From: a bacterium
GTDB taxonomy: Bacteria; Auribacterota; Auribacteria; Auribacterales; Auribacteraceae
Reading direction: 5' to 3'
Length of the DNA: 64,000 nucleotides
Assembly: GCA_024233545.1 (NCBI GenBank)
Contig: JACKPL010000009.1
Location: 6,578-70,577, forward strand
Below, piece after piece: positions 3,884 to 58,319 of this stretch. A program made the position numbers and the translations under genes. The notes beneath the pieces were generated by a model, which was not told the origin of the DNA, searched no databases, and worked only from the letters and a program-made list of their open reading frames with translations. Position 1 is the first letter of the stretch. Every line of letters begins with the position of its first letter.

Positions 3884-3893
3884 ATTCCGCACT

Positions 3894-15816: not shown

Positions 15817-17343
15817 CTACACGGATAGTTTAAATTTCGCAACAAGGTTCTTCAGTAACACAACCTGCGTTTTCATTTCTTCTGATGCCGCCGCCATTTC
15901 TTCAGCGCTCGATGCATTTGTTTCTGTGATGGATGTGCTTTCTTCCATGCTTGCGGCTTGTTCTTGGGTAGCGGAAGAAATAGCATGAATCTGGTTCGCC
16001 GCATTCTCGATATCTGCAACAATTTCCTTCAACATCTTTCCAGCTTCCTGAGATAACTGAACACCGGCAGAAACTTGCGTAAGGCTATCTTGAATGACAT
16101 TGGTAATTTCTTCTGCGGATTTTGCACTGCGTTCCGCCAATTTTCGCACTTCGTCCGCAACGACAGCAAACCCTTTTCCATGTTCTCCTGCACGCGATGC
16201 TTCTATAGCGGCATTTAATGCTAAAAGATTCGTCTGGTCAGATAAATCAGTGATAATGCCGACTGCCTCGGCAATTTGTTTTGAACTTTTCTCTATCGTC
16301 TCTATAGCAGTAATAGTACTATCCATTTTCGAACCGATTCCGAGAGCATAGTTCGCCGCTTTTGTCGTTAGTTGCTCTGCCTCTTGCGCATTGACAGCGT
16401 TCGACTGCATCGAACTGGAAAGTTCTTCGAAATGCGCCGACTGCTGTTGAGCACCGTCGGCAATTTGTTGAGCCGCTGAAGAGACTTCGTCACCGCCCTC
16501 AGACAATCGTTGTGCTGAAACATTCACCTCAACCATAATAGCCGCGAGTTTCTCCATGAACACATTTGTCCACCGAGCAAGCTCTCCGATTTCGTCTTTT
16601 GTATGAATCGAAACTCGTTTTGTCAGGTCGCCTTCTCCTTGTGCAATATCTTGAATGGTTGCAACAAGCTGTTTCATAACGGCAACAACGCTTTTTTCCA
16701 TTACGGTCAGCACTATGCCCATCAGCACCGCTACGATACCGCAGATCAGAAACATGCCTTTTTTCATTGTGCTATAGCGTGTTTCTGCATGCGCTCGGTC
16801 ACGCTCTGCCGTTGCCAGAGTAACGTTCTCCAATTCATCGATTGTACTGCGCATGGATTCAAACTGTTCTTTAGCGCCTGCCAACGATAGATCGATGGCA
16901 AGGGCACGCCCTTCACGGGTATCGGCTTTTCTTCCTTCGACAATCTGTTGCGACAGGGTTTTCCATTTGGAAAATTCGTTTTGAAACCGCTCAATTTTAT
17001 CCAGCTCATCCTGTGTATGTTGAAGCGCAACATACGTATCCCACCGCTGTTGCACTTGCCCGATATTTTCATCATATTCCGCTATCAATGCCTTAAAAAT
17101 ATCGGATGACGCGTTGGCAAATATCATTGACCGCTCCGCAACAAGAGCTTGCTGTAAATCTCGGTCGATTTCCAGCAAGAGATTGATCGCAGGTATGGTA
17201 TTGCAAAAGGTTATATTCAACTCATTTTTAATTTCTCCGGCATTATATAGCCCGTTCCACACAAGAATGATCAAACTGGCAAAAAGAAAGCCGAACGCTA
17301 GAAGAAATTTCTGTCTGAACTTTAAATTATTAAACCAACGCAT
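15817..17343 (-). CDS. methyl-accepting chemotaxis protein
   Basis: Two TM segments flank a helical periplasmic region of about 170 aa, followed by a HAMP domain. The signalling hairpin is [34 protein letters not shown]. Confidence 0.92.
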
Positions 17344-18486: not shown

Positions 18487-20064
18487 TTAATTGTATGGTT
18501 CAATTACCGCATAGAGTGTTGTAGTTCCGCTAACTTCATTGGAAACAACCAATAACGGAACGCCCGTAGGCGATTGATTCGCTGGAATAAATAAAATACC
18601 TTCTGGAGCAAGGCCGCCGGCGGTCCCCTCTTCAGGGTTGCCGTCAAAATTGCGGTTAGTGACGTAGTCGGAAAAATGCGGCGTAAACGGATTGGTCACA
18701 TCGTAAATCATGATGCCGCCCATCCGCTCAAGCCCGATAAACGCATAGGTATGTCCATTGATTACTCCTAAAACAACGTTTTCCGGTTCCGGCCCTTTAT
18801 CGTCACTGCGGTTATCGAACGAATTGTTTTCTTCGTTGTTTGAATTGAAGTTTGCGGGAAAAAAAGATGCGGTAATTTCTTCAAATTCACTGCCGCTGTC
18901 GTATACAAGCCGGCCGTCCTCCGTCCAAATGGAAAAAGAGCGTGCTCCGAATGAGTAAATATGATGAAACACATCCGTGCCATCGGATGCAGTAGTTTTC
19001 CCGGACGGCGGAAACGCGGTTGTTTTCAAACGACCGAGGTTTTCTTTTTCTTGAATATCCGGATACAAGCTGAGGAAATAAGGATGCAGAGTAATGTCTT
19101 CAACACGTTCTTCTTCACTAAACCCGTCATAATCGCGGGAATCGCCTTCATTTGCGGTAATGAGAAACGTTTTCCCGTATGCAGTATATGACGCTATCCC
19201 ATCGGGCAGATACATGCCTCTCACCTGCCATGGACGAATGTTGATTGTATTATCCCGGTCGCTGGCATCGAACGCGTTACGCCAGAAAAGGTGCTGTTTG
19301 AAACCGAGAGGAATAATATCGGTTACTCTCGCTTGTTTAATATCGACTACGGCAATCGCATTATTTTCCTGAAGAGTAACATACGCGGTTCGAGAATCAT
19401 CGGAAACAGTAATGTATTCCGGTTCAAAGTCTTGAGCGGCTGATGCGTTAGGGCCGAATATACGGACGCCTTTCTCGCGTAATCTGTCCTCTTTGCCGTT
19501 ATACCGTCTGAAATGGGCCGTTTCGACAGATATTCTTCTTAATCCTCGCGATAAGTTAATTATACTTATTGATCCTTCGGGATCGACTGTATAGTCATCG
19601 CTCGGTTCGCCTTCGTTGGCAACGATGATTTTTTTGCCGTTCGGAGTGAACGCCAGCATATCAGGCAAAGCGCCGACAGCGACATGCGTCAAAGGCATGC
19701 CGTCCGCATCAAAAAGCGCAACAGTGCCGGCATCGGTCTTAGCTTCAGCAACAATTGCTACCGCGACCATTCCGTTATACACATCCACGCTGGTCGGGTC
19801 AGCTCCATACGGCGTAACATCTATGGACGCATGGAGCGACGGCGATTCAGGATTGCTGATATCGAGCACATCAATGCGCGCCTGAGCGCCGTTCGCCACA
19901 AAAAGGCGTTGCGTTGCGGGGTCGTATGCCGCAATTTCCGCCGCACTGCCGTTAAAGATTCCTGCAGAATATGTTCCCAATTGCTCCAATGTTATTTCTG
20001 CAGTCACAAACCGCGCAGTAAAAATCAGTACCGCACTTATCATCATTCTTATTGTTCGTTTCAT
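18487..20064 (-). CDS. secreted beta-propeller-type protein (choice-of-anchor I-like, from memory)
   Basis: Signal peptide MKRTIRMMISAVLIFTARFVTA. Further blocks are AAEIAAYDPATQRLFVANG and the C-terminal APEGILFIPANQSPTGVPLLVVSNEVSGTTTLYAV. The start ATG at 20064 follows a GGGAGAA RBS. Confidence 0.65.
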   Translation of the reverse strand: MKRTIRMMISAVLIFTARFVTAEITLEQLGTYSAGIFNGSAAEIAAYDPATQRLFVANGAQARIDVLDISNPESPSLHASIDVTPYGADPTSVDVYNGMVAVAIVAEAKTDAGTVALFDADGMPLTHVAVGALPDMLAFTPNGKKIIVANEGEPSDDYTVDPEGSISIINLSRGLRRISVETAHFRRYNGKEDRLREKGVRIFGPNASAAQDFEPEYITVSDDSRTAYVTLQENNAIAVVDIKQARVTDIIPLGFKQHLFWRNAFDASDRDNTINIRPWQVRGMYLPDGIASYTAYGKTFLITANEGDSRDYDGFSEEERVEDITLHPYFLSLYPDIQEKENLGRLKTTAFPPSGKTTASDGTDVFHHIYSFGARSFSIWTEDGRLVYDSGSEFEEITASFFPANFNSNNEENNSFDNRSDDKGPEPENVVLGVINGHTYAFIGLERMGGIMIYDVTNPFTPHFSDYVTNRNFDGNPEEGTAGGLAPEGILFIPANQSPTGVPLLVVSNEVSGTTTLYAVIEPYN

Positions 20065-20342
20065 ATGATTCTCCCTTTTAAAGACGTGTTGCTGTCCCCC
20101 CACAAAACGCCGTTATTCTTTCATTATATAATTAGCGGAGAATTAAAGCATGTTTAAAAAACTATTAACCAAATACATGATTGCTAATCTTATCCTAAAA
20201 AAGCATTGAATCTATACTTTTATCAGAATAGAATGTATAATAATTGCTTTTCTTTTTCGATACTATGAAAACAACGGAATATAAAGAAGTCTCCGTTATT
20301 CATCATATAGACAATCTGACACACTGCCTAAAAGGATTCACA

Positions 20343-23680: not shown

Positions 23681-23770
23681 GGAGAGATGCCAGAGCGGTT
23701 GAATGGGGCGGTCTCGAAAACCGTTGGCCACGCAAGTGGCCCCAGGGTTCGAATCCCTGTCTCTCCGCCA
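23681..23770 (+). tRNA. tRNA-Ser (anticodon CGA)
   Basis: Acceptor ggagaga/tctctcc, anticodon arm gcggt-CTCGAAA-accgt, long variable arm, T-arm caggg-ttcgaat-ccctg, and an encoded CCA. Confidence 0.9.
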
Positions 23771-30309: not shown

Positions 30310-31461
30310 TCAGGCATGGCGCACACGAAATGCTTCCGCCGCCTTGATTCTACTGCTTATGCTCGGATGGTCATGCAGGAGAAACTCGATAAGGGGATGC
30401 GGTTCTTCATCTGCAAGGTTTAAGTCGGCAAGCTTTTTCATGGTGGATATGAAATGATCGGGCGCATTGGTTTGGCGCAGAGCGAAATTGTCTGCCTGTT
30501 TTTCAAGTATGCGTGTATAAGTCGCATTTATCGGCATGGAAATCAGTGTGAACACAAACATGCACAATAAAAAAACTGGAAACGCGGCGATATCGGTAAT
30601 TCCGGCAAATCCCGAGCTTACCGCAAGGCGGTCGAAAATCAAACTTACTAGATACAGTCCGGCAAACGTAATGGCTCCTCCGAACAAAATCAACTGCCAG
30701 ATATGTTTATAGTAGAAATGTCCGAGTTCATGAGCAAGGACAACTTCAATTTCTTCATCGCAGAAATTCTTCAGGAGAGTATCGCCTAAAAGAATGCGTT
30801 TTGTGTTTCCAAGCCCTGCGAGAGCGGCGTTTGCCTTTTTTGTTTTTGCGCTAAGCTCCATTTCAAAAACGCCAAGTATTGTTACTTTAAGGCGTTCCGC
30901 CATAGCAATTAAACGTGTTTTAAGCGCATCGTTTTCCAACGGTTTGAATTTATAAAACAACGGCATAATCAGAACCGGCGCAATATTGCTTAGGATAATG
31001 CCGAACCCCACCCATAAAACACCAACCCATAACCACCATGATTTTTCAGCCAGCATAAAGAAAAGATATAACCCTTCGGCAACAAACACCATAAACACAA
31101 GGTTAAGAACATACGATTTGCCTTTATCTCCAAGCCATGAGCCAAACGATTGCGTGGACAACGAATATTTATGTTCGAGATAATAACCGCTGTAAAAACT
31201 CAGCGGAAGCAGGCATGCCATATACATAGTGGTAAGGATGCCGCTGTACACCGCAACTTGAATCCAGTAGTTTGCGCAGAATGATTGAATCCATGCAAGG
31301 AGTTGTGCCGAAAATCCGCCTTGTTTTCCGACAAAAACAAAAAGCGCAATGAGGATTACCGTATAGACAATATCAACAAGAAAAAGCCAATTGTGAATCG
31401 CTTCGTATCGTTTTGCAAGCGCTTTTCGGTGAGACGCCGACGATGAATCCGGTTGAGCCAT
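30310..31461 (-). CDS. M48-family zinc metallopeptidase (Ste24/HtpX-like), polytopic
   Basis: HELGH occurs in VLAHELGHFYYKH. Several N-terminal TM helices are present, and the C-terminal region contains HPLIEFLLHDHPS. Confidence 0.85.
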   Translation of the reverse strand: MAQPDSSSASHRKALAKRYEAIHNWLFLVDIVYTVILIALFVFVGKQGGFSAQLLAWIQSFCANYWIQVAVYSGILTTMYMACLLPLSFYSGYYLEHKYSLSTQSFGSWLGDKGKSYVLNLVFMVFVAEGLYLFFMLAEKSWWLWVGVLWVGFGIILSNIAPVLIMPLFYKFKPLENDALKTRLIAMAERLKVTILGVFEMELSAKTKKANAALAGLGNTKRILLGDTLLKNFCDEEIEVVLAHELGHFYYKHIWQLILFGGAITFAGLYLVSLIFDRLAVSSGFAGITDIAAFPVFLLCMFVFTLISMPINATYTRILEKQADNFALRQTNAPDHFISTMKKLADLNLADEEPHPLIEFLLHDHPSISSRIKAAEAFRVRHA

Positions 31462-31883
31462 TATGCCCTCCCTTGAACAATACTCAATCGCGCGGAGGCA
31501 CGTTCCAATGCGGCTAAAGCACGGTCTAAATCCACTTTTTCTTTATCTTCCTGCAGTCGTTTTTCTGCACGCTCTTTGGCTTCAAGAGCACGGGTTGAGT
31601 CGATATCCGCTTCATGTTCGCTGGAACGGGTCAATATTAAAACCTTGTTTTTTTCGACATACAGTATGCCGCCGGCAATAAAAAAGGTAATTTCCTTTTC
31701 CGGCCGTTTACTTTTTCCGATCGGTTCGATGACAATCCGGCTTATGTGCAACGTTGACATAAACCGCGTATGCCGCGGCAATAAGGTAAAATATCCCGCT
31801 TCTCCGTGAGCAATGATTTTTGCGCACTCCTGTTCCAAAACGTCTTTTTCGGGAGTACGTATTATAAGCCTAAGGGAATCCAT
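31461..31883 (-). CDS. atpC: F1 ATP synthase epsilon subunit
   Basis: 140 aa, immediately downstream of atpD, with a beta-sandwich plus helical hairpin pattern (LRLIIRTPEKDV...). Confidence 0.85.
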   Translation of the reverse strand: MDSLRLIIRTPEKDVLEQECAKIIAHGEAGYFTLLPRHTRFMSTLHISRIVIEPIGKSKRPEKEITFFIAGGILYVEKNKVLILTRSSEHEADIDSTRALEAKERAEKRLQEDKEKVDLDRALAALERASARLSIVQGRA

Positions 31884-31894
31884 GGTAAAAATCC

Positions 31895-33331
<1,437 letters not shown>

Positions 33332-34243
33332 TTATTTTTTTAATGCTTCTGCTCCTCCGACGATCTCGAGTATTTCGGTTGTGATAACCGCTTGCCGAGC
33401 ACGGTTATATACTAAAAGCAGATTGTTAATCAGTTCTTCCGCATTAGTCGTGGCGGCATCCATGGCGTTCATGCGGGTTATCTGCTCGGCTAAAAACGAT
33501 TCTTCCATAATATGCTGGATACGAAGATCGATATAATGGTTCGCCAACGTGCTAAACACATGTTCAGGTTCCGGCTCAAGAAGTGCCGATACACGCCGCG
33601 CTTTCGGGGCAGGCTTGCCCGATTCGGTTTCAGGAATATCTCCGGATATTTTGTTTTCTTTGCCGGCATCGCTAAAAATATCAGTCAATGGCAAGAGCTG
33701 TATCAACCGCAACGGTTGTTGTCCCATGCTCTCGAATCCAGTATAAAGAGCTTTGATTGAAGAATAGTTGCCTGAAAGGTAGTGGAATTTGATGGTTTCT
33801 GCAATCTGAGAATATATTTTGAAACCCGGATGGGTAAACACATCCTGCTTTTTCCCGATAATCGAAATATCCGAGCGGCGTTTCAGTATATTGATCCCTT
33901 TCTTTCCGATTACGTATAAATCGGCGTTCTGCAGGTGAGTGTTGCCGAACCGAATCAGGTTGGTATTGAATGCTCCGCAGAGACCGCGGTCGGAAGTAAC
34001 TATAAGAATCAGGTCTTTGCCGGCATTTTGAACCTGATTACACAATGGATTATACCGTAGCACCACTTCTTTCTTGAGCAAACTCATCATTCCCTCAAGT
34101 TCGGATAAGTACTGCTTAGTACGTTCCAGTTTCTTTTGAATTTTTTTGTACTTAGCCGTAGCAACCATTTTCATGGCGCGGGTAATTTTATGTATTTCGC
34201 GGACACTTTTTATCCGGCTTTTGATATCGCGTATATTTTCCAT
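33332..34243 (-). CDS. atpG: F1 ATP synthase gamma subunit
   Basis: N-terminal IKSRIKSVREIHKITRAMKMVATAKY and C-terminal ITTEILEIVGGAEAL. Confidence 0.93.
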   Translation of the reverse strand: MENIRDIKSRIKSVREIHKITRAMKMVATAKYKKIQKKLERTKQYLSELEGMMSLLKKEVVLRYNPLCNQVQNAGKDLILIVTSDRGLCGAFNTNLIRFGNTHLQNADLYVIGKKGINILKRRSDISIIGKKQDVFTHPGFKIYSQIAETIKFHYLSGNYSSIKALYTGFESMGQQPLRLIQLLPLTDIFSDAGKENKISGDIPETESGKPAPKARRVSALLEPEPEHVFSTLANHYIDLRIQHIMEESFLAEQITRMNAMDAATTNAEELINNLLLVYNRARQAVITTEILEIVGGAEALKK

Positions 34244-35767
34244 TTATTTCGCTTGGCTGAAATTTTTTGTAAACGCAGTTAAGACATCTCTCAGTTCTTT
34301 ATCGATTTCGTCGGTAATCTTTTTTTCTGCTTCGAGTTTATCGAGTATTTTTTTATGGCTTTTTTCGATATGTTCGAGCAACTCTTTTTCATACCGCTTG
34401 ACATTCGGAATAGCAATCGTTTTAAGAAAGCCGTTCACACCGGCAAAAATGCTGATTATTTGATGTTCCACTTTCATAGGAGCATACTGCCCTTGCTTGA
34501 GTACTTCTACCAGCCGTTCGCCTTTGCTCAATTGAGATTGAGTTGCTTTATCCAATTCCGTTCCGAATTGCGCAAATGCCGCCATATCACGGTATTGCGC
34601 AAGTTCAAGGCGCAGAGAACCGGCAACCTGTTTCATCGCTTTGATCTGCGCACTGCCGCCGACACGCGATACGGACAACCCTACGTTAATTGCGGGGCGC
34701 ACACCGGAATAGAATAAGTTGCTTTCAAGATATATCTGCCCATCGGTGATGGAAATGACATTAGTCGGGATATAGGCGGAGACGTCTCCTGCCTGCGTCT
34801 CGATAATCGGCAGAGCGGTAAGCGACCCGCCTCCGAGCTCTTTGCTCAACTTTGCGGCTCGTTCAAGCAAACGAGAATGCAGATAAAAAATATCACCCGG
34901 ATACGCTTCGCGTCCCGGCGGGCGGCGGAGAATCAAAGACAATTGGCGGTATGCAACGGCATGTTTCGACAAATCATCGTAAATGATGAGCGCATGTTTT
35001 CCGTTATCGCGGAATTCCTCTCCCATGGCACATCCTGCATACGGCGCAAGGTACTGAAGCGGCGCCGGATCGCTTGCTGTTGCCGACACGATGGTTGTAT
35101 ACTCCATGGCACCGTATTCTTCCAACGCGTTTATGACTTGTGCAACCGTTGACTGCTTCTGCCCGATCGCAACGTAAATACAGTAGACGCCCGCTCCTTT
35201 TTGATTGATGATCGTATCGATCGCTATAGCGGTTTTGCCGGTTTGCCGGTCGCCGATAATGAGTTCGCGCTGTCCGCGCCCTATGGGCACCATGCCGTCG
35301 ATGGCTTTTATGCCGGTTTGAAGGGATTCTTTGACCGGCATACGCTCGACTACGCCGGGCGCTAACCGTTCTATGGGACGGAATTTTTTACTGGTAATCG
35401 GCCCTTTGCCGTCGATGGGTTCGCCCAATGCATCGACGACACGCCCGCACAACTCCTCGCCGACGGGCACTTCAACTTGCCTGCCGGTCAGCTTGACAGT
35501 ATCGCCCTCTTTAATGAGGGAATCGTCGCCGAGCACTACTGCGCCAATAGTAGTTTCTTCAAGGTTCATGACCATCCCCATGACGCCTTTGTTCATTTCA
35601 ATAAGTTCGCCAGCCATGGCGTTATCCAGCCCGTAGATGGTAGCAACGCCGTCGCCGATTTGCACGACTGTACCGACTTCTTCCAATTTCATCTCTTTTT
35701 CAAAGGATGAAATTTTTTTCTTTATAAGGGAACTTATTTCGTCCGCTTTAATTTGCATCGCCGTCAT
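34244..35767 (-). CDS. atpA: F1 ATP synthase alpha subunit
   Basis: Walker A GDRQTGKT, plus [11 protein letters not shown] and [20 protein letters not shown]. Confidence 0.97.
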
Positions 35768-36315
35768 CCTTCTTGTTTGAGAGCTTCTTTTATACGAGTT
35801 AATTCATTTTTCAGTGAAAAGTCCATTACTTGGTTATTCACTCTTATAACCAATCCGCCAAGAATCTCCGGTGCAACACTGCATACCAGTTCCACATCGT
35901 TATGGAATAGCGATTTTAGATGCGCAGATATGGATTTTTTAGCAGTGTCACTGAGTGGTATTACGCTCTGCACATGGGCAGTCACCATACGAAACGATTC
36001 CTGAGCCCGCTGTCTATAAAAGTAGAGTATTTTTTTTACCAAGCCTGTTCGATTGTTTTCTATAAGAACATTCATAAAGCGGATAAAGACGTCATGCACT
36101 TCCGCTTTTTTTAAAATGGCGGTATTGACAGCCTGTTTCTCTTTCTGAGGAATAAGAGGATTGGACACAAATGTTCGGTAATCGCGGTTTTCTTTGAGCA
36201 GAGAAGACATATCTTCAAGCTGTGCCCATATTTCGCGTACAACATTGGATTCGTGTGCCGCATCGAAAAGCGAAGCGGCATACCGCTGTGCGATTTTCCC
36301 AAATAGATTTTCCAT
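35764..36315 (-). CDS. atpH: F1 ATP synthase delta (OSCP) subunit
   Basis: 183 aa, located between atpF and atpA, beginning [13 protein letters not shown]... Confidence 0.85.
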
Positions 36316-36323
36316 TTAGAATT

Positions 36324-36815
36324 CTAATTCCATGATTGAGACTTCATTTTTTTCAAAACATCATCAACGAGACTTGTGTGCTCCTTGGCGGAAATCGATT
36401 TCTCCACTATTTTTTCCGCTACTGCAACAGCCACATCGGCAACATCGCTTCTCAACTGTGCCGCGGCTTTTTTCCGTTCGGTTTCAACGGCCGCTTTGCC
36501 GTCATCGATAATTTTCTGCGATTCCTGTTCTGCACGCGCAAGGATTTGCGTGCGCGCTTCCTCGCCTTCTTTTTTCGAATTTCGAACGATGGACGCCGCT
36601 TGAGTTTTTGCCTGCATAAGTTCTTCTTCGCGCTGTTCCAACAAGGTTTTTGCTTCGTTTTGGAGACGGGACGCCTCATCAAGGTCGACTTTCACCCCTT
36701 CGGCGCGGCGGTCGAGATAATCGAGCAGTTTTTTGTAGAGCAGTTTATTGAGCACCCACATCAAAATACCGAAATTGATGATCTGAAGTATCATGGTGAA
36801 ACTTATATCTATCAC
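36324..36815 (-). CDS. atpF: Fo ATP synthase b subunit
   Basis: A single N-terminal TM helix followed by a long charged coiled coil (...REEELMQAKTQAASIV...). Confidence 0.88.
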   Translation of the reverse strand: MIDISFTMILQIINFGILMWVLNKLLYKKLLDYLDRRAEGVKVDLDEASRLQNEAKTLLEQREEELMQAKTQAASIVRNSKKEGEEARTQILARAEQESQKIIDDGKAAVETERKKAAAQLRSDVADVAVAVAEKIVEKSISAKEHTSLVDDVLKKMKSQSWN

Positions 36816-36858: not shown

Positions 36859-37110
36859 TTATTTGATTACAAAAAGCATCAACAGCGCAATAACGAGCGA
36901 ATAAATACCGGTTGACTCTGATACCGCTTGCCCGATAAGCATGGTACGGGTAATCAAGTTGGCATTTTCCGGTTCGCGAGCGACGCCCTCACACGCCTTG
37001 CCGGCGGCAAACCCTTCGCCGATGCCGGGGCCGATTGCACCGAACCCCATACAAATCCCAGCGCCGATCATTGCGGCGGCTTTAATTATTTCCGCGCCTG
37101 TCAGTTCCAT
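36859..37110 (-). CDS. atpE: Fo c subunit (single hairpin) with Na+-type two-carboxylate motif
   Basis: 83 aa. It contains [11 protein letters not shown] (E32) and [19 protein letters not shown] (E65, S66, T67, Y70), counted from Met1. Confidence 0.92.
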
Positions 37111-37140: not shown

Positions 37141-37623
37141 TTACACAACATATATTAACATTAAAGCAATAACCAATGCATAAATACTGGTAGACTGCGA
37201 TACTGCCTGCCCAATGAGCATGGTGCGCAACAGTACTGTTTCCGAATCCGGATTACGCCCCACTCCCTCGCATGCCTCTGCGTTAGCAAACCCCGCACCG
37301 ACACCGGGCCCGAATGCCCCGGCTCCCATGCAGATTCCTGCACCAATCAGTGCACATAACGGCGCCAATCCGATAACAGCCGGCGCATTAAATAAAAGTA
37401 TAAACGCAACCAGCAATGCGAAAATCGATGGCGATTCGGTAACCGCTTGCCCAATAAGCATGGTTTTGATTACCTGCCCTTCCGCTTCCGGCTGACGCGC
37501 AATGGCGTTACACCCGCGCGAGCTGGCATACCCCACACCGTACGCCGGTCCGATCGCGCCGACACCCATACAGCATGCGGCGCCGACAAGAGAAGCGATT
37601 TTCATTGCGTATGCATCAATCAT
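37141..37623 (-). CDS. atpE: fused double-hairpin Fo c subunit (four TM helices, one carboxylate lost)
   Basis: 160 aa, made of two c-subunit repeats. Hairpin 1 has ...LIGQAVTESPSIF (E63). Hairpin 2 has ...LIGQAVSQSTSIY (Q143, codon cag, the reverse complement of ctg at 37195-37197). Confidence 0.88.
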   Translation of the reverse strand: MIDAYAMKIASLVGAACCMGVGAIGPAYGVGYASSRGCNAIARQPEAEGQVIKTMLIGQAVTESPSIFALLVAFILLFNAPAVIGLAPLCALIGAGICMGAGAFGPGVGAGFANAEACEGVGRNPDSETVLLRTMLIGQAVSQSTSIYALVIALMLIYVV

Positions 37624-37677: not shown

Positions 37678-38541
37678 TTATTCATTCACCATCACCGATA
37701 CATAGACAAGCGCCAGCATGGTAAACACAAATGCTTGAACCGCGCCGACAAACAAACCAAAAAAACCGTTAAGGAATACGGGCAGTACTATAAACCGTAT
37801 CAAATTACAAATAACGACCATAATAATCGCTCCGCCTAATATATTGCCGAAAAGACGAAACGAGTGGGATATGGTTTTCCCGATTTCTCCGACGATATTG
37901 AGCAGTCCCATAAACATATTAAATATAAATTTACCGATATTGCCGCCATTGAACCCTTTATCATACGGCATCGTAACGAAATATTCCGCAACATACCCTT
38001 TAAATCCCCGCACATAAATACCGCTGATGTGCGCTACGAAAAAACACATAATGCCGAATCCAAGTGTTGTATTGAGGTCGCGGGTTGGTTCTTCTATGGC
38101 TAGCCAATGGGGAAACACGCCATCTACGACATGCCAGAAACTCGGAATAACTCCTACCCAGTTAGACAACAACACAAAAATAAACAGCGTTGCGACAAAC
38201 GGCAGAAATTTTCTTCCACGTTTTTTGCCAAGCACTTCCGTACACAGCGTATCGAAAGCGGAAACATATGTTTCCGCTATTGCCTGCAGTCTGCCGGGTA
38301 TGGGCGTAAGGCGCCTCGTAAAAAAATAACTTCCTGCAATAACTACTGCCATAATCAGCCATGTATTAAGAACTGTAGAGATATTGATGCCGTTAAAAGG
38401 GATTTTTACGCCGAAAACCGTATGGATTTTTGCAAAAGGAGCCGCTATTTGAGACATATCATATTCGCCGAAAAGAGAAATGATAAACTCAACTGTAAAA
38501 ATAATTCCGATAACCAGAAAGACTTTTTTCTTGTTACTCAT
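37678..38541 (-). CDS. atpB: Fo ATP synthase a subunit
   Basis: The conserved stator Arg lies in SHSFRLFGNILGG. The start was chosen at MSNKKKVFLV (ATG 38541), overlapping the atpI stop by 8 nt. Confidence 0.9.
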   Translation of the reverse strand: MSNKKKVFLVIGIIFTVEFIISLFGEYDMSQIAAPFAKIHTVFGVKIPFNGINISTVLNTWLIMAVVIAGSYFFTRRLTPIPGRLQAIAETYVSAFDTLCTEVLGKKRGRKFLPFVATLFIFVLLSNWVGVIPSFWHVVDGVFPHWLAIEEPTRDLNTTLGFGIMCFFVAHISGIYVRGFKGYVAEYFVTMPYDKGFNGGNIGKFIFNMFMGLLNIVGEIGKTISHSFRLFGNILGGAIIMVVICNLIRFIVLPVFLNGFFGLFVGAVQAFVFTMLALVYVSVMVNE

Positions 38542-38902
38542 GCTGTTTAAATCCCCAGATAAAGTCGATGTAAATCGCAATTTGAACCAAGAAAATGCCA
38601 ATGGCGAAAGAGACAATGTTCACCGTATCATATCGGACGGCAACACAAAACGCCAAAGATAAAATTACAAACCGGAAAAAAAAACCTATTAAGATATTCT
38701 TCGAAGATTTTCGTTTGTTTACGGTTTCTGAAATCCGTTTGCCGATCAAAAAAAAGTTCAGCAATCCAACGCCAGTACCCAACAGCAACCCGTACACCCA
38801 ATCGCCCGCACCGGCGGCAATTGCTACGACACAGGCGGAACACGACAGCTGAACAACTCTTTTTAAAATCTGTTTCCAGACAGCCCGAACAGCTTGATGC
38901 AT
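38534..38902 (-). CDS. atpI: ATP synthase protein I
   Basis: A 122-aa hydrophobic protein directly upstream of atpB. Confidence 0.7.
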   Translation of the reverse strand: MHQAVRAVWKQILKRVVQLSCSACVVAIAAGAGDWVYGLLLGTGVGLLNFFLIGKRISETVNKRKSSKNILIGFFFRFVILSLAFCVAVRYDTVNIVSFAIGIFLVQIAIYIDFIWGFKQHE

Positions 38903-38920: not shown

Positions 38921-39199
38921 TCAGATATTTAACTCTTTTTTTAGGATTCTGTAACATTGGTAGAAGCCGGCACAAATGCCCGCGATTATGAAGACTATAA
39001 GAAAAATATAGTCTTTTCGGAAAATTTTATCAAGCCAAATTCCAATAAAAAAACCTGTTATTATTGAAAAGAACATTACCAGCCCGATATTTGAAATCAC
39101 TACAAAAACCCGGAATATTTCTCTGCGCTGTCCGGTTTGAGGGATTTCCTTCTCCGGTTCGGGCTTGCGAGACGGTTGGTTATTGGAAATGTTTGGCAA
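38921..39199 (-). CDS. AtpZ/AtpR-type small membrane protein
   Basis: 92 aa with two TM helices (VVISNIGLVMFFSIITGFFIGIWLDK...IFLIVFIIAGICAGFYQCY). It is the first gene of the atp cluster. Confidence 0.65.
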   Translation of the reverse strand: MPNISNNQPSRKPEPEKEIPQTGQRREIFRVFVVISNIGLVMFFSIITGFFIGIWLDKIFRKDYIFLIVFIIAGICAGFYQCYRILKKELNI

Positions 39200-40049
39200 T
39201 GTGTTCGAGTTCCTTTCTTGAATTAAAATGGATAATCAGCCTGCCGGATGTATCGTTCCATTTTATTTCAACCCGAGACTTGAGTTTACTGCGCAGTGTG
39301 CTGGTCACTTCGCCGAACGCCTGTTTGAGGCCCGGGTCGGTCAACGACCGCACAACAGTTTTTTTATCGGGCGATTTGAGTGCCTGAACAAGTTTTTCCG
39401 CATTGCGCACATTAAAACTGTTGCGGACAATCTGGCGGAATACATCCAGCTGTGCATCCTGATCCTCAAGCCCGAGCACCACTTTGGCATGCCCAACCGT
39501 GAACGAACCGTCCTGCAATGCATGCTGAATCTTTGGAGGAAGCTTAAGCAACCGAAGCGCATTCGTAATCGCTGTGCGGCTTTTTCCTACCTGCCGAGCG
39601 ATATCCTCATGGGATAAACTGAACTCTTCCGACAACATAAGGTAACCGCGCGCTTCTTCGATAGGGTTCAGGTCGGCGCGCTGAATATTTTCTATAAGCG
39701 CAAGCTCAAGGGCTTTGAGGTCGTTGACATTTTTCACTATTGCCGGTATTTCGTTCAATCCGGCGCGCTGAGCGGCAATAAACCGCCGTTCGCCGGCTAT
39801 CAGTTCGTATCCTGCCTGCATTTTACGCACGATGATCGGCTGAATGACGCCGTTTTCCTTGATGGACAGTTCTAAATCCTTGAGTTTCTCTTCGATGAAT
39901 TCGGAGCGAGGCTGGTAACGGTTTGCTTTAATATCGCTTAATTTTATACGGTGTACCAGTTCACGGTCAAGCGGCGATACGGGAATTAAGGATTGCAGTC
40001 CTCTTCCCAGCGGCGATTTCTTTTGTTTCGGGTCGGTTCCGGATTCCAT
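39180..40049 (-). CDS. parB: chromosome partitioning protein ParB/Spo0J
   Basis: LGRGLQSLIP, IQPIIVRK...YELIAGERRFIAAQRAGL, and an HTH in SHEDIARQVGKSRTAITNALRLLKL. Confidence 0.93.
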   Translation of the reverse strand: MESGTDPKQKKSPLGRGLQSLIPVSPLDRELVHRIKLSDIKANRYQPRSEFIEEKLKDLELSIKENGVIQPIIVRKMQAGYELIAGERRFIAAQRAGLNEIPAIVKNVNDLKALELALIENIQRADLNPIEEARGYLMLSEEFSLSHEDIARQVGKSRTAITNALRLLKLPPKIQHALQDGSFTVGHAKVVLGLEDQDAQLDVFRQIVRNSFNVRNAEKLVQALKSPDKKTVVRSLTDPGLKQAFGEVTSTLRSKLKSRVEIKWNDTSGRLIIHFNSRKELEHIAKHFQ

Positions 40050-40070
40050 GGTATGTTAAAAAATCCTTTC

Positions 40071-40859
40071 TTATACAGCGGAGAGCAGTTCCGCATTGCG
40101 TTTCAAAAATTCTCGGGCGAGGTCGCGGTATGCTTTCGAACCCACACTCGCCGGATCGTAGTAGAGAGCCGGTTTTCCGTAGCTCGGCGCTTCCGACAAC
40201 TTCACGTTGCGCGGGATGATTGTCGAATACACATATTCCCGTTTACTGAAGAAACTGTTGACTTCGTTGAGCACATGAACGGCAAGTCGCGTGCGCTTAT
40301 CGAACATGGTAAGCACGATCCCTTCTATGTGCAGGTCAGGGTTGAGCCCAAGCTGAATAAGATTGATTGAATTGAGCAGTAAACTGAGCCCTTCAAGCGC
40401 GTAGTACTCGGTTTGAATCGGTATGAGCACGCTGTCGGCGGCGCTAAGCGCGTTCACCGTAAGGAGCGTCAAAGAGGGAGCACAATCCAGAATGATAAAA
40501 TCGTATTCGTCCCGAACGACTTTGAGCGCTTCTTTGAGGCGTGATTCCCTGCTTTGTTTTTCGTACAGCCCTACATCCGCGCCGCTTAAATCGCGGTTTG
40601 ACGGAATAATATGAAAGTTGGTGTAGCCGGTGTCGAGTATGATTTCGGTAAGCGGAAACTCATCGACCAACGCATCATAGAGCCCGACGGTAAGCTGGTG
40701 GGTGTTTATGCCGAGCCCGCTGGTAGCGTTTCCTTGCGGATCAGCATCGATCAGCAGAATTTTCCAGCCGTGTTCCGCCAATCCCGCGCACAGATTGATG
40801 GCAGTGGTCGTTTTGCCTACGCCGCCCTTCTGATTGGTTATACTGATTACTTTGCCCAT
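40071..40859 (-). CDS. parA: chromosome partitioning ATPase ParA/Soj
   Basis: A deviant Walker A, KVISITNQKGGVGKTTTAINL, followed by ILLIDADPQGNAT. Confidence 0.95.
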   Translation of the reverse strand: MGKVISITNQKGGVGKTTTAINLCAGLAEHGWKILLIDADPQGNATSGLGINTHQLTVGLYDALVDEFPLTEIILDTGYTNFHIIPSNRDLSGADVGLYEKQSRESRLKEALKVVRDEYDFIILDCAPSLTLLTVNALSAADSVLIPIQTEYYALEGLSLLLNSINLIQLGLNPDLHIEGIVLTMFDKRTRLAVHVLNEVNSFFSKREYVYSTIIPRNVKLSEAPSYGKPALYYDPASVGSKAYRDLAREFLKRNAELLSAV

Positions 40860-41075: not shown

Positions 41076-41092
41076 TCAAAGATATTTCGTCC

Positions 41093-41177
41093 GGAGAGGT
41101 GGCTGAGCGGTTGAAAGCACCGGTCTTGAAAACCGGCGAACCGAAAGGTTCCGTGGGTTCGAATCCCACCCTCTCCG
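41093..41177 (+). tRNA. tRNA-Ser (anticodon TGA)
   Basis: Acceptor ggagagg/cctctcc, anticodon arm ccggt-CTTGAAA-accgg, long variable arm, and T-arm gtggg-ttcgaat-cccac. CCA is not encoded. Confidence 0.9.
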
Positions 41178-41287
41178 TTGAATTCAGCGGAGCAGGGCGG
41201 CGGACGAATCGATGCTTACGTTACTACATACTGCATGCGGGATGCCGGTTAGGTACGGCACCGCGTTGCATATCATACGATCTAAAC

Positions 41288-41377
41288 GGAGAGGTGGCTG
41301 AGAGGCTGAAGGCAACGGATTGCTAATCCGTCGTAGGGGCTCAACCCCTACCGAGGGTTCGAATCCCTCCCTCTCCG
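41288..41377 (+). tRNA. tRNA-Ser (anticodon GCT)
   Basis: Acceptor ggagagg/cctctcc, anticodon arm acgga-TTGCTAA-tccgt, long variable arm (gtaggggctcaaccccta), and T-arm gaggg-ttcgaat-ccctc. Confidence 0.9.
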
Positions 41378-41451
41378 TTTTACTTTTTTCATCGTTTGTT
41401 TGATAAAACACATAGGCTAATCCAAATCAATCGTTACAAAAAGGTTTCCAA

Positions 41452-42059: not shown

Positions 42060-42100
42060 CTCCCTATGTTGATTCAGGCATTCAAACGCAACACCGTCAT

Positions 42101-43511
42101 GTCATTCCTACGAAAGCGAGAATCTATTTTGTATTGTTAAATTCATATGCAATACCACTGTACGTGTCATTCCGGCGAAACACACCGAGAGGATAAATAC
42201 CTTGACCGCGGACGTTCAAACCACAACACAACACTATGTCATTCCTGCAAAAGCAGGAATCTATTTTGTATTGTTAAATTCATGTGCAATACCACTGTAC
42301 GTGTCATTCCGGCGAAACATACCATGAGGATAAATACCTCGACTGCGGACGTTCAAACCACAACACAGCACTATGTCATTCCTGCAAAAGCAGGAATCTA
42401 TTTTGTATTGTTAAATTCATGTGCAATACCACTGTACGTGTCATTCCGGCGAAACACACCGAGAGGATAAATACCTCGACTGCGGACGTTCAAACCACAA
42501 CACAACACTATGTCATTCCTGCGGAAGCAGGAATCTATTTTGTATTATTAAATTCATATATGCAATACCACTGCACGTGTCATTCCGGCGAAACATACCA
42601 TGAGGATAAATACCTCGACTGCGGACGTTCAAACCACAACACAGCACTATATCATTCCTGCGAAAGCGAGGAATCTATTTTGTATTATTAAATTCATGCG
42701 CAATACCACTGCACGTGTCATTCCGGCAGAAAACACACCGAGGATAAATACCTCGACTGCGGACGTTCAAACCACAACACAACACTATGTCATTCCTGCG
42801 GAAGCAGGAATCTATTTTGTATTGTTAAATTCATATGCAATACCACTGCACGTGTCATTCCGGCGAAACATACCATGAGGATAAATACCTCGACTGCGGA
42901 CGTTCAAACCACAACACAGCACTATGTCATTCCTGCGAAAGCAGGAATCTATTTTTTATTGTTAAATTCATGTGCAATATCACTGCACGTGTCATTCCGG
43001 CGAAATACCATGAGGATAAATACCTCGACTGCGGACGTTCAAACCACAACACAGCACTATGTCGTTCCTGCGAAAGCAGGAATCCTATTTTGTATTGTTA
43101 AATTCATGTGCAATATCACTGCCGTCTTCTATGTCATTCCGGCGAAACACACCAAGAGGATAAATACCTCGACTGCGGACGTTCAAACCACAACACAACA
43201 CTATGTCATTCCTGCAAAAGCAGGAATCTATTTTGTATTGTTAAATTCATGCGCAATACCACTGCACGTGTCATTCCGGCGAAACACACCGAGAGGATAA
43301 ATACCTCGACTGCGGACGTTCAAACCACAACACAACACTATGTCATTCCTGCGGAAGCAGGAATCTATTTTGTATTGTTAAATTCATATGCAATACCACT
43401 GCACGTGTCATTCCGGCGAAACATACCATGAGGATAAATACCTCGACTGCGGACGTTCAAACCACAACACAGCACTATGTCATTCCTGCGAAAGCAGGAA
43501 TCTATTTTGTA
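42101..43511. repeat. tandem array of about 10.3 units of 137 bp, each containing a REP-like hairpin
   Basis: Unit starts were read at 42101, 42238, 42375, 42512, 42651, 42789, 42926, 43061, 43205, 43342 and 43479. Every unit has gtcattcctgc-(g/a)(a/g)aa-gcaggaatctattttgtattgttaaattcat... Confidence 0.95.
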
Positions 43512-43532
43512 TCCACGGTGTTTCGAGTATGG

Positions 43533-52919: not shown

Positions 52920-53011
52920 GGAGAGATGTCCGAGCTGGCCTAAGGAGCACGACTGGAAATCGTGTAAACGTCAAAAGCGTTTCGAGGGTTCGAATCCCTC
53001 TCTCTCCGCCA
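52920..53011 (+). tRNA. tRNA-Ser (anticodon GGA)
   Basis: Acceptor ggagaga/tctctcc, anticodon arm cacga-CTGGAAA-tcgtg, long variable arm, T-arm gaggg-ttcgaat-ccctc, and an encoded CCA. Confidence 0.9.
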
Positions 53012-53677: not shown

Positions 53678-55813
53678 ATGTCTGATTTTCTCGCTCATTC
53701 GAAGAGTGACGTGACAGGAGATATTGATCCTCTCAATGAACATCTAACGAAAACCGCAACAATTGCAGAATCTTTTGGAAAAACCAACCAAGAAAAAAAA
53801 ATTTTGGAGTTGCTTGGGTATTTCCATGATATCGGCAAATACAGAAAAGAGTTCCAGACATATCTCCGTGAAGGCGGACAAAGGGGAAGTGTTCCCCATT
53901 CTATTTACGGTGCATATTTAGCTTATCAGAAAAAAATAAACATCGCCGCATTTTGTATTGCAGGTCATCATAAGGGCTTACCTGATTCAACAGGGTTAAA
54001 AAATGACTTAAAAAATGAAACGTTATTGAATGAAACCTGCAATTTAGAAAAGGCATTTCAAAATGACATAGAAAAAAATATCTCCGATCTCATCCCATCA
54101 CCACTCAATTTTGGAGATTGCCTTTTATCCGAAACATATACTCGTTTCTTTTTTAGTTGCCTTGTTGATGCTGATTGGCTAGCAACAGAGTCACATTTTT
54201 CTCCCCATGTATATACAAAACGCATTTCAAAAACAATCAATATTAATGAAAAAATAACCATATTGGATCGTTATATTTCAAAATTTCCTGTTGACGGAGA
54301 CATCAATTTTTTAAGAAATACCGCTAGAGAAGATGCAAACAAATTGGCATGTAAGCCTATAGGATTTTATTCTCTGAACCTTCCCACAGGTTTGGGCAAA
54401 ACATTATGTTCTGTTAGTTGGGCATTGCGTCATGCACACCATAACGATTTGAAGAGAATCATTATTGTCCTTCCTTACACCAGCATAATTGACCAATCAG
54501 CAAAATTATTAAAAGAAATTTTTGGCGAAGAAGAAATACTCGAGCATCATTCGACATTTGAATTTAAAGATGGTAGTAACCCCACTTATAAAAAACTGTC
54601 TGCTGAAAATTGGGACTTTCCCTTTATATTAACAACAAATGTCCAGTTTTTTGAATCGATTTTCAGTAATAAACCCTCAAAATGTAGAAAAGTGCACAAT
54701 ATTTCCAACTCGATCGTTATATTCGATGAAGTACAGAGCCTTCCAAAAGATAAGTTTCTACCAACCATAACGATGCTTAAAAACTTGAAAGATATCTTTA
54801 AAACATCATTTTTGTTCTGTACGGCAACTCAACCAGCCTTCGCATCCCGCGAGGGATTTAGCGGTATTGATGGGATTGTCTCCCTCGTTATCAGCCCTGC
54901 AAGATACTATACAAAAACAAAGCGAGTCGATTATTCGCTTTTCAGAAAACTCAGTCAAGTTACACTCGATGATATTGGATATGAAATAGACGAAAATGGT
55001 TCTTCAACACTCGTAGTATTTAATACGAAAAAGGATACGATGGGTTTATATAACCAAGATTTTAAAAGTTTCGATAAAAAATACCATTTAAGCACTGCAA
55101 TGTGTCCAGCACATCGGAAAAGAAAAATCGATGCAATCAAAAATGATTTAGTAAATCATGAGAAGAAAATTATAGTCTGTTCTACCCAGTTAATTGAAGC
55201 AGGAGTTGATCTTGACTTCCCTGTCGTTTTTAGAGCATTATCCCCTCTTGATTCAATTATTCAATCGGCTGGTCGTTGCAATAGGGAAGGGAAACTGTCT
55301 AAGGGAGATGTTTTTATTTTTAAGCTGGCGGAACAAAAATATCCGACAAAGACATATGAGCTGGTTTCCAACTTTACCGAGATGTTTCTTCAACGAGATG
55401 GATTGGATATATTGCATTCTCACGATTCGTACGAAAGGTACTTCATGGAATTGGATAATTTTATTAAATGGGATAAGGGAAAAATCGATGACTTGCGAAA
55501 AAATTTCTTATTTGAACAAGTAGCCGATACATACAAGATTATCGATTCTCCTGCACAAACGGTTGTCGTCCCATATAACAAAGGCGAAAAACTTATTTCA
55601 GAATTGGGGCACAAACCTTTTCTTTCAAGAAGTGATTTTCAAAAACTCCAATTATATTCTGTTCAGATGTACCCAAACCAATTTGAGGAATCCTTAAGTT
55701 CAGGATTGATCCAACAGTCTCCGAACGGACTGTTTTTTATATGGATAGGAAAATATAGTGATGATGTAGGCGTTGTGTTTGATACAACGGAAGCAATAGA
55801 CCTCGTGATCTGA
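53678..55813 (+). CDS. cas3: CRISPR-associated helicase/nuclease Cas3 (HD + SF2 helicase)
   Basis: HD motifs (LGYFHDIGKY, IAGHHKG), Walker A NLPTGLGKT, and DExQ in VIFDEVQSLP. It is the first gene of the type I-C operon. Confidence 0.93.
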   Translation: MSDFLAHSKSDVTGDIDPLNEHLTKTATIAESFGKTNQEKKILELLGYFHDIGKYRKEFQTYLREGGQRGSVPHSIYGAYLAYQKKINIAAFCIAGHHKGLPDSTGLKNDLKNETLLNETCNLEKAFQNDIEKNISDLIPSPLNFGDCLLSETYTRFFFSCLVDADWLATESHFSPHVYTKRISKTININEKITILDRYISKFPVDGDINFLRNTAREDANKLACKPIGFYSLNLPTGLGKTLCSVSWALRHAHHNDLKRIIIVLPYTSIIDQSAKLLKEIFGEEEILEHHSTFEFKDGSNPTYKKLSAENWDFPFILTTNVQFFESIFSNKPSKCRKVHNISNSIVIFDEVQSLPKDKFLPTITMLKNLKDIFKTSFLFCTATQPAFASREGFSGIDGIVSLVISPARYYTKTKRVDYSLFRKLSQVTLDDIGYEIDENGSSTLVVFNTKKDTMGLYNQDFKSFDKKYHLSTAMCPAHRKRKIDAIKNDLVNHEKKIIVCSTQLIEAGVDLDFPVVFRALSPLDSIIQSAGRCNREGKLSKGDVFIFKLAEQKYPTKTYELVSNFTEMFLQRDGLDILHSHDSYERYFMELDNFIKWDKGKIDDLRKNFLFEQVADTYKIIDSPAQTVVVPYNKGEKLISELGHKPFLSRSDFQKLQLYSVQMYPNQFEESLSSGLIQQSPNGLFFIWIGKYSDDVGVVFDTTEAIDLVI

Positions 55814-55824
55814 AAGGAGGAGTT

Positions 55825-56532
55825 ATGCCGGATAAACATGTCGTAAAGGTAAAAGTAACAGGCGATTTTGCGTGTTTCACACGCCCTGAACTCAAAGTTG
55901 AGCGGATGAGTTATCCATGTATGACTCCATCTGCCGCACGCGGCATACTGGATTCGATATTATGGAAACCGGAGTTCAAATGGTTCATACGAAGAATACT
56001 TGTCCTTAATCCGGTAAAGTTTTTCTCTATAAAGAGAAATGAGTTAGACAAGATAATACCTTCAAGGGGATTGTCGCCAATCATTATTGAAGACAACCGA
56101 GCGCAACGTAACAGCCTCATTTTGCGTGATGTTGCTTATGTGATTGAGGCGTCGGTTCATCTTGATGCCCCATCCCAAACGAATCCGCCGGTAAAATATA
56201 TTGAAATGTTTAACCGTAGAGTAAAAAAAGGACAATGCTGGCGCCGTCCATATTTTGGCTGTCGCGAATTCAGCGCTGATTTCATGCCTGCCTTTGACAG
56301 CGATCAACCTATCGCGGAAGACATTCCAATCGGTGGAATGTTGCTCGATATTTTTTATGATAACAAGGGAAATCCTGAACCGCTTTTCTTTAATGCGGCA
56401 ATTAGAAACGGCATTTTATCTTGCGAAAACGATTATGAAAAAATGATGAACAGTTCGCATTTTTCAAAGCAGTTGGATCTCATTACACAATCCTGCCTTT
56501 ACTCCTTAACCCAACAGGAGGAACTATTATGA
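55825..56532 (+). CDS. cas5: Cas5c (Cas5d) pre-crRNA endoribonuclease
   Basis: VKVTGDFACFTRPELKVERMSYPCMTPSAARGILDSILWKPEF. Confidence 0.92.
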   Translation: MPDKHVVKVKVTGDFACFTRPELKVERMSYPCMTPSAARGILDSILWKPEFKWFIRRILVLNPVKFFSIKRNELDKIIPSRGLSPIIIEDNRAQRNSLILRDVAYVIEASVHLDAPSQTNPPVKYIEMFNRRVKKGQCWRRPYFGCREFSADFMPAFDSDQPIAEDIPIGGMLLDIFYDNKGNPEPLFFNAAIRNGILSCENDYEKMMNSSHFSKQLDLITQSCLYSLTQQEELL

Positions 56533-58289: not shown

Positions 58290-58319
58290 TATTTCTGCAA
58301 CGAAGAAGGAGAATATGTT

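Follow-up and report, generated by a model that had tools for sequence, protein, structure and literature searches.

The window analysed here, a stretch of 64,000 nucleotides from contig JACKPL010000009.1 of assembly GCA_024233545.1, carries an atp operon with two genes for the rotor subunit c of an ATP synthase. One of them encodes a protein of 160 amino acids in which two c-subunit hairpins are fused and the second has lost its ion-binding carboxylate. The question raised by this locus is what kind of rotor would be built from such a pair of subunits, and how it relates to the rotor of Acetobacterium woodii, which a preliminary description of the same DNA had named as the only precedent. The reading preferred here, to which we assign a probability of about 0.7, is that of a canonical F1Fo enzyme, probably Na+-coupled, with a membrane rotor composed of a c subunit of 83 amino acids together with the fused subunit of 160.

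The fused gene is located at 37141..37623 on the minus strand and forms an uninterrupted open reading frame (ORF). Hairpin 1 comprises residues 1-80 (37384-37623, minus strand) and hairpin 2 residues 81-160 (37144-37383, minus strand), with the motifs GQAVTES from residue 58 and GQAVSQS from residue 138, respectively. PF00137 (E 1.8e-30; 105 bits, cutoff 24) and TIGR01260 (95.5 bits, cutoff 44) each match the protein twice, NF005521 scores 130.5 bits (cutoff 122), and a hairpin hidden Markov model built for this analysis finds two domains of 136 and 127 bits. The AlphaFold2 model, computed from an alignment of 13 orthologues, consists of four long helices with a mean predicted local distance difference test (pLDDT) score of 82.6. 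The uninterrupted frame, the double profile matches and the four predicted helices bear out the proposal of a fused two-hairpin F-type c subunit, and the residues at the rotor position are those claimed: in hairpin 1 the carboxylate is kept as E63 (codon GAA, 37435..37437, minus strand) in the second transmembrane helix (TM2), and in hairpin 2 it is replaced in TM4 by Q143 (codon CAG, 37195..37197, minus strand).

Twelve further orthologues of 158-163 amino acids and 63-87% identity share this architecture and keep Q143. Position 63 is Glu in 11 and Gly in 2 of the 13 close orthologues, while P65, F68, A110, Q143, S144, T145 and Y148 are invariant in all 13. At the six key positions (32, 63, 65, 66, 67 and 70 in the numbering of the single-hairpin c) the fused subunit reads VVESPF in hairpin 1 and AVQSTY in hairpin 2. 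The helix-1 position that provides a Na+ ligand in other rings (Q32 in Ilyobacter tartaricus, E32 in Fusobacterium nucleatum) is thus hydrophobic in hairpin 1 (V30, codon GTG, 37534..37536, minus strand), and the corresponding ligand of hairpin 2 is lost as well (A110, codon GCG, 37294..37296, minus strand). Position 30 is V, L or I in all 13 orthologues. Behind E63, the segment S64-P65-S66-I67-F68 (37420..37434, minus strand) carries P65 and F68 in place of the T67/Y70-type ligands that would serve the site of the next hairpin. The equivalent segment of hairpin 2, S144-T145-S146-I147-Y148 (37180..37194, minus strand), has these ligands and would complete the Na+ site of the following neighbour in the ring. 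The statement that hairpin 1 keeps the ion-binding site therefore holds for the carboxylate itself, but not for the helix-1 ligand, which is Val30.

Models for the V-type subunit K score only 25-43 bits on the fused protein against cutoffs of 101-211 (NF004913 42.7/211, NF011483 35/188, NF005124 24.7/127), and no V-type chain is found among its PDB sequence matches at E<=1e-3. A true V-type proteolipid is ruled out by these sequence comparisons, though the fold is alike. With K scores so far under the cutoffs both hairpins are F-type, and the term 'F/V hybrid' describes an architecture and not an ancestry: the four helices justify it, whereas the F-type sequence of both hairpins and the position of the carboxylate in TM2 instead of TM4 do not.

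The operon surrounding the gene is a complete canonical F1Fo set in the order atpZ-atpI-atpB-c(double)-c(single)-atpF-H-A-G-D-C, all on the minus strand, so the gene order given earlier is found again, with atpZ in front of atpI. The genes are atpZ (ATPase_gene1, 38921..39199, PF09527), atpI (38534..38902, PF03899), atpB for subunit a of Fo (37678..38616, with the stator Arg in an FRLFGN motif; the start codon is uncertain, 287 amino acids being called in other assemblies), the fused c, the single c (36859..37110), atpF for subunit b (36324..36815), atpH for delta/OSCP (35764..36315), atpA for alpha (34244..35767; TIGR00962, 839 bits against a cutoff of 484), atpG for gamma (33332..34243), atpD for beta (31895..33298; TIGR01039, 838 bits against 463) and atpC for epsilon (31461..31883); atpF, atpH, atpG and atpC were assigned by profile matches. 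The presence of two c genes between atpB and atpF, first the fused one and then one for a single hairpin of 83 amino acids, was likewise correctly described. Canonical F-type models pass, while all of the alternate (N-type) models TIGR03322, TIGR03306, TIGR03324 and TIGR03305 stay under their cutoffs. The delta gene atpH also speaks against an N-type F1Fo ATPase, which was rejected on these two grounds.

The single-hairpin c gene starts 30 bases 3' of the fused gene. Its product matches the c subunit of F. nucleatum (3zk1) with E 9.8e-23 and has all six Na+ ligands, E32, V63, E65, S66, T67 and Y70, at identical numbering. The c11 ring of F. nucleatum (PDB 3ZK1/3ZK2; PMC3692424) is homomeric and built from single hairpins, with no fused subunit. 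This two-carboxylate motif makes Na+ the most likely coupling ion, and the F1Fo enzyme is probably Na+-coupled. A ribosome-binding site GAAGGAG lies 8 nt before the start of the single c gene and AAGGA lies 11 nt before that of the fused gene; the better site of the former weakly favours the single c as the majority component of the ring.

Among known structures, c1 of A. woodii is closest to the fused subunit both in sequence and in fold. Chain J of 4BEM is the best PDB sequence match (E 9.4e-29, query residues 11-159 on 28-178) and also the best Foldseek match of the predicted model (4bem_J, TMq 0.84, root-mean-square deviation 2.6 Å), followed by V-type proteolipids with TM-scores of about 0.7. 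It is this double match which makes the hybrid-rotor reading reasonable. A. woodii c1 is likewise a four-helix fusion of two F-type hairpins. Its rotor position is Glu in the first hairpin (AETSGIF) and Gln in the second (AQTTGIY), and position 70 is Phe in the first and Tyr in the second (QVETSF / QVQTTY at the key positions). Its gene also stands between atpB and a gene for a single-hairpin c in an operon atpI-B-E-E-F-H-A-G-D-C. Matthies et al. reportedly described in 2014 the crystal structure of an 'F/V-hybrid' ring of composition c1(1):c2/3(9), PDB 4BEM. The chain counts of 4BEM agree with one c1 to nine c2/3, which corresponds to 10 sites on 11 hairpins and to 3.3 Na+ per ATP. The window protein differs in the absence of the N-terminal extension (160 versus 182 amino acids) and at the helix-1 ligand positions, which are V30 and A110 compared to Q and Q in A. 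woodii, so that hairpin 1 lacks the full A. woodii-type Na+ motif (Q....E-T/S). The window has one single-c gene where A. woodii has two, and this single c carries two carboxylates (E32/E65) in contrast to Q32/E65.

A similar pair is known from Clostridium aceticum, whose F1Fo operon encodes a fused c1 with Glu in hairpin 1 and Gln in hairpin 2 together with one single-hairpin c, and for which Na+-stimulated ATPase activity was measured (PMC7911925). C. aceticum, compared here by description only, is a Firmicute and, with its Q....ET motifs, belongs to the A. woodii type. The V/A-type proteolipids (Enterococcus hirae NtpK, 2BL2; eukaryotic subunit c; the A1Ao c subunits of Eubacterium callanderi and E. 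limosum) share with the window protein the four helices, a similar fold (TM-score about 0.7), one carboxylate per two hairpins and, as proposed for the window enzyme, a lowered ion/ATP ratio. Their live carboxylate, however, is located in hairpin 2 (TM4) and their live site is intramolecular, whereas the window protein has its carboxylate in TM2 and a dead intramolecular site; moreover, the partner proteins encoded by the window operon are F-type. Tandem fusion of c hairpins is also found in the archaeal A-type enzymes of Methanocaldococcus jannaschii (three hairpins) and Methanopyrus kandleri (13 hairpins; PMC2359735). M. kandleri keeps all of its sites, in contrast to the bacterial family described in the following, which strips most of them and pairs the fused subunit with a single c.

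Relatives of the fused gene were sought in one genome per GTDB species, and 335 genomes contained a relative confirmed by tblastn. The loci of 80 of these 335 were inspected (labelled L001 to L080); all 80 contain a fused multi-hairpin c gene, and in 76 of them a single-hairpin c follows directly 3', the other four being affected by a contig end or an ORF that was not detected. With at least 80 species-level genomes carrying a fused c plus a single c, and with the published case of C. aceticum (PMC7911925), A. woodii is not the only precedent. The 81 fused proteins (window protein plus 80 loci) have two (n=24), three (n=41), four (n=12), five (n=1) or six (n=3) hairpins; three of them are in loci cut by a contig end, for which only scored hairpins are counted. 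In a large protein search with 515 matches at E<=1e-10, the best 120 were all fused proteins of 158-272 amino acids. The single-hairpin partners are uniform: EVESTY occupies the six key positions in 69 of 79 sequences (77 single c subunits of the window and the inspected loci, with A. woodii c2 and I. tartaricus added as references). The carriers belong to a dozen or more phyla and include Candidatus Auribacterota with Ca. Tritonobacter lacicola, Omnitrophota, Mcinerneyibacteriota, Cloacimonadota, Planctomycetota (Brocadiaceae, Phycisphaerae), Verrucomicrobiota, Margulisiibacteriota (Termititenax), Hydrogenedentota, Desulfobacteraceae and other 'Deltaproteobacteria', Anaerolineales, Spirochaetota, Latescibacterota, Coatesbacteria, Nitrospirales, one Bacillota metagenome-assembled genome (MAG) and the cultured Dethiosulfatarculus sandiegensis SPR.

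Examples of three to six hairpins in a single ORF are found among loci L013-L080, e.g. in L047 (5935-7191), L051 (4999-6480), L059 (4969-6696) and L077 (5495-6970), the fused gene being followed by a gene for a single-hairpin c of the EVESTY type. L047 is the five-hairpin c of the cultured D. sandiegensis SPR. The six-hairpin proteins read E-Q-Q-Q-Q-Q at the carboxylate position, and five proteins with four hairpins are without any carboxylate.

How a fused subunit fits into a ring depends on the way in which an ion site is divided between hairpins. In I. tartaricus, E65 and Q32 come from one subunit and S66 and the V63 carbonyl from its neighbour (PMC2359735). The two-carboxylate Na+ site of F. 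nucleatum is built in the same manner with S66 and the V63 carbonyl of the adjacent subunit, T67 holding a water molecule and Y70 forming a hydrogen bond to E65 (PMC3692424). In the fused NtpK of E. hirae, E139 and Q110 are provided by hairpin 2 and T64 and L61 by hairpin 1 (PMC2359735). These split sites indicate that the carboxylate of a hairpin is completed by the preceding hairpin in the chain; the geometry of the A. woodii site is deduced from the same three descriptions.

Across the 81 fused proteins the residues vary together in a way that agrees with this division. Hairpins without a carboxylate never have E or Q at their own position 32 (138/138), and the hairpin preceding them is without T67 in 123 of 124 cases and without Y70 in 122 of 124. 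The last hairpin keeps S/T-T-Y in 75 of the 81 proteins, with or without a carboxylate of its own. The first hairpin keeps its carboxylate in 67 of the 81, and 47 of these 67 hairpins have E at position 32, where the window protein has V30. Individual proteins illustrate the pattern: L047 reads EVESAF-SIQTPF-SVQTPF-NVQSTY-EVESTY, and L076 ends in EVESTY after EIESAF-SVQTPF-GVQTTY. The sequences suggest the rule that at a dead site the ligands are given up at positions 32 and 65 in one hairpin and at positions 67 and 70 in the hairpin before it. In the window protein all side-chain ligands of the internal site are gone, A110 and Q143 standing in hairpin 2 and P65 and F68 in hairpin 1.

For the rotor proposed here this would have the following consequences. 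Each ion site of a c-ring lies between two neighbouring hairpins: one of them supplies E65 and Q/E32, and the preceding one supplies the side chains of S66, T67 and Y70 as well as the main-chain carbonyl at residue 63. The internal site of the fused subunit would carry no ion and would pass subunit a empty, like a permanently neutral site. S144, T145 and Y148 of hairpin 2 would complete the Glu site of the following subunit, and because they are kept, that site would stay intact. The E63 site would borrow its S/T/Y ligands from the preceding subunit and, with Val at the helix-1 ligand position, would probably be weaker or less Na+-selective. Each fused subunit would thus occupy two hairpins of the circumference while transporting at most one ion, by which the ion/ATP ratio would be lowered, as in A. 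woodii.

Several points weigh against this picture. The presence of the fused subunit in the ring, the number of its copies and the coupling ion are inferred by analogy, and the physiological direction of the enzyme (synthesis or pumping) is also an inference. A V-type structure and the covariation gave the direction in which the site is split, in place of coordinates for a fused subunit of the F-type, and the covariation counts are phylogenetically non-independent. Of 37 internal hairpins with a retained carboxylate, only 6 follow a hairpin with Y70, so that not every carboxylate marks a complete Na+ site. V30 takes a Na+ ligand from the sole carboxylate site of the fused subunit, and two close orthologues have Gly for E63; the site may accordingly be weaker, less Na+-selective or in the course of being lost in this lineage, and hairpin 1 may contribute little or nothing.

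An unlikely alternative, which nevertheless fares best among those considered, is a ring that is rich in fused subunits or made only of them, similar to V-type rings, or one whose content of fused subunits changes with conditions. In that case the ion/ATP ratio would drop much further, to as little as half, and the enzyme would act mainly as an ATP-driven Na+ pump in a fermentative anaerobe. S144, T145 and Y148 could serve E63 in a second fused subunit just as they could E65 in a single c, and relatives with three to six fused hairpins and one carboxylate point to strong selection for few sites. The window encodes a glycyl-radical enzyme resembling pyruvate formate-lyase (PFL), and Auribacterota have been described as fermenters (PMC9324843); the classical gear-ratio argument for duplicated c subunits (cited in PMC2359735) fits as well. 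On the other hand, the window has a single c with a perfect Na+ motif and the stronger ribosome-binding site, and such a single c follows the fused gene directly in nearly all inspected loci (76/80). The known ring of A. woodii contains a single c1 beside nine c2/3, and V30 would leave an all-fused ring dependent on a weakened site.

Hardly more probable, and ranked just behind, is a fused protein without any working site, in which E63 would be vestigial and the protein would serve as a two-hairpin 'spacer' or as a symmetry-breaking structural or assembly element. The consistently hydrophobic position 30 (V, L or I in 13/13 orthologues) would fit such a role. The close orthologues of 160 amino acids P0078, P0105 and locus L005 (6001-6474) have Gly for E63 (GQAASGTPSIF / GQAAAGTPSIF) with the remainder of the protein conserved, so that these double-hairpin subunits have a carboxylate in neither hairpin, and the five four-hairpin relatives without any carboxylate point in the same direction. 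Against this, E63 is found in 11 of the 13 close orthologues and a carboxylate in 67 of 81 first hairpins. Many F-type rings, moreover, have working single-carboxylate H+ sites without a polar ligand in helix 1.

The likeness to A. woodii c1 raises the question of a common origin. Hairpin identities were calculated over 82 aligned columns, and neighbour-joining trees of 77 hairpins with 200 bootstraps were computed, a distance-based approach on short sequences. Hairpins 1 and 2 of A. woodii c1 share 74% and 71% of their residues with A. woodii c2 and 60% with each other, but only 38-43% with the hairpins of the window protein. A clade of the three A. woodii hairpins, in which I. tartaricus was allowed as one extra member, is recovered in 199 of 200 bootstraps, whereas an A. 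woodii hairpin and its counterpart in the window protein are grouped together in no more than 2. Hairpin 1 of the window protein is placed with first hairpins from further double and triple fused genes, and hairpin 2 among the last hairpins of fused genes, near the single c genes; the single c of the window is 60% identical to hairpin 2 and 45% to hairpin 1. The window hairpins thus group with the first and last hairpins of fused c subunits from many non-Firmicute phyla. Taken together, identities and bootstraps indicate that the duplication seen here is separate from that in Acetobacterium, old and common to many phyla, with the caveat that c1 and c2 of Acetobacterium could have exchanged sequence by gene conversion and so give a false impression of independent duplication; c2 and c3 of Acetobacterium are identical proteins (PMC7911925). 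The common pattern of E-to-Q in the last hairpin and Y-to-F in the first is best read as convergence.

The surroundings of the operon point to the host. In the nearest loci, L001, L002 (labelled Ca. Auribacterota), L003, L005 and L008, the synteny parB-atpZ-atpI-atpB-c1-c-atpF-atpH-atpA-atpG is as in the window, AtpA is 76-83% identical to that of the window and the single c 89-100% identical over the aligned part. The host is therefore Auribacterota-like and no relative of A. woodii, and the earlier impression that it is not an acetogenic Firmicute is supported by this synteny and AtpA identity with Candidatus Auribacterota-like MAGs.

Acquisition of the operon or of the c1 gene from an Acetobacterium/Clostridium-type Firmicute, or vertical sharing with one, which would make this the A. 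woodii system itself, is very improbable. The best PDB match, the identical E/Q and F/Y pattern and the similar gene order could be taken in its favour, but the A. woodii hairpins are far closer to their own c2 than to the window hairpins (74%/71% versus 38-43%; 199/200 versus at most 2/200 bootstraps), the latter fall among fused c subunits of many non-Firmicute phyla, and synteny and AtpA identity tie the window to Auribacterota-like MAGs. Descent or transfer from an Acetobacterium-like lineage, left open in the preliminary description, was rejected on the basis of the hairpin identities and bootstraps, A. woodii c1 grouping with A. woodii c2 and not with the window hairpins.

Gene calls on 7 contigs, which derive from 6 independent assemblies or samples, give the identical protein of 160 amino acids (NCBI GCA_020440625.1; ENA ERZ27248703, ERZ27309377 and ERZ28655881; Logan SRR12358675 and SRR12358676). 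Six copies were read at the nucleotide level and represent two alleles 5 substitutions apart, all of them synonymous; all six have CAG at codon 143, GAA at codon 63 and an open frame. The recurrence of the same protein with only synonymous differences between alleles shows that the fused gene is not an artefact. Two ordinary c genes joined by a frameshift or a missed stop, or a GAG misread as CAG, can be dismissed as a practically negligible possibility in view of these copies, of the 12 further orthologues with invariant Q143 and of the at least 80 genomes with fused genes.

Among the other features of the window, parA-parB (39180-40859, minus strand) is located directly upstream of atpZ-atpI. 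At least parB is conserved in this position in L001-L003, L005 and L008, and its persistence beside the operon in the five closest relatives suggests that the atp operon may lie near the chromosome partition and origin region in this lineage. A PFL-like glycyl-radical enzyme of 793 amino acids is encoded together with its radical S-adenosylmethionine (SAM) activase at 3146-6275 (minus strand), by which an anaerobic lifestyle is indicated. The publication describing Auribacterota as fermenters names only an 'F-type ATP synthase' and gives no c-subunit detail (PMC9324843). The remark on surface-protein families in the preliminary description is confirmed by a large LamG/TSP3-repeat protein (6484-9942, minus strand) and a choice-of-anchor I protein (18487-20103, minus strand); a methyl-accepting chemotaxis protein is encoded at 15817-17343 (minus strand).

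The four tRNA genes, all on the plus strand, are tRNA-Ser genes (anticodons CGA, TGA, GCT and GGA, at 23681-23770, 41092-41178, 41287-41378 and 52920-53011), two of which lie side by side between the par/atp block and a tandem array. This array (42099-43512), just downstream of the two tRNA genes, consists of 10.3 copies of a 137-bp unit with 92% matches. The units contain short palindromes of the type TCATTCC-GCGAAAGC-GGAAT, and as unique spacers are absent it is not a CRISPR array. Type I-C-like cas genes occupy 53678-60818 on the plus strand, with Cas3 at 53678-55813, Csd1/Cas8c at 56529-58289 and Cas1 at 59784-60818. They are followed by a CRISPR array (61311-63239) with a repeat of about 37 nt, GATTCGCCCCTCTTCAATGAGGGGCGTGGATTGAAAC, and a period of about 70 bp.

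No relevant description of a multi-hairpin or fused F-type c of this kind was found in the literature searched; the 2015 review on the distribution of hybrid rotors by Brandt and Mueller, which is cited for the statement that Rnf-dependent anaerobes regularly have several atpE copies, may cover the family. We tentatively suggest, as a possibility that falls short of an even chance, that the many-phyla family of fused F-type c subunits with two to six hairpins, usually one carboxylate and a following single c of the Na+ type is undescribed, that it is independent of A. woodii c1 while following the same site-stripping rule by convergence, and that it would comprise natural rotors with a graded and strongly reduced ion/ATP 'gear ratio'. 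New in the window gene itself are the Auribacterota-like host, the separate origin, a surviving site with a hydrophobic residue at the helix-1 position, the pairing with a two-carboxylate single c and the explicit rule on which residues are stripped. More striking as a lead is the family at large, in which as many as six fused hairpins share a single carboxylate.

The number of ion sites in the c-ring sets the ions required per ATP. On it depends whether an energy-starved anaerobe can make ATP at all, or how steep the gradient can be that it pumps. Knowledge of the F-type 'hybrid rotor' has so far come from A. woodii and Firmicutes closely related to it. Separate evolution seems to have led to the same solution here, one that is apparently common among uncultured anaerobes, including Auribacterota, Omnitrophota, Cloacimonadota, Planctomycetota, Hydrogenedentota and Desulfobacterota. 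The stripping rule would predict the number of working sites straight from the sequence, and bioenergetic models of the carrier phyla that count one ion per c hairpin would be wrong. The series of two to six hairpins would offer a natural test of the idea that duplication and loss of sites turned synthases into pumps, and, if the proposal is true, this series includes the cultured D. sandiegensis, in which the ion/ATP ratio could be measured.

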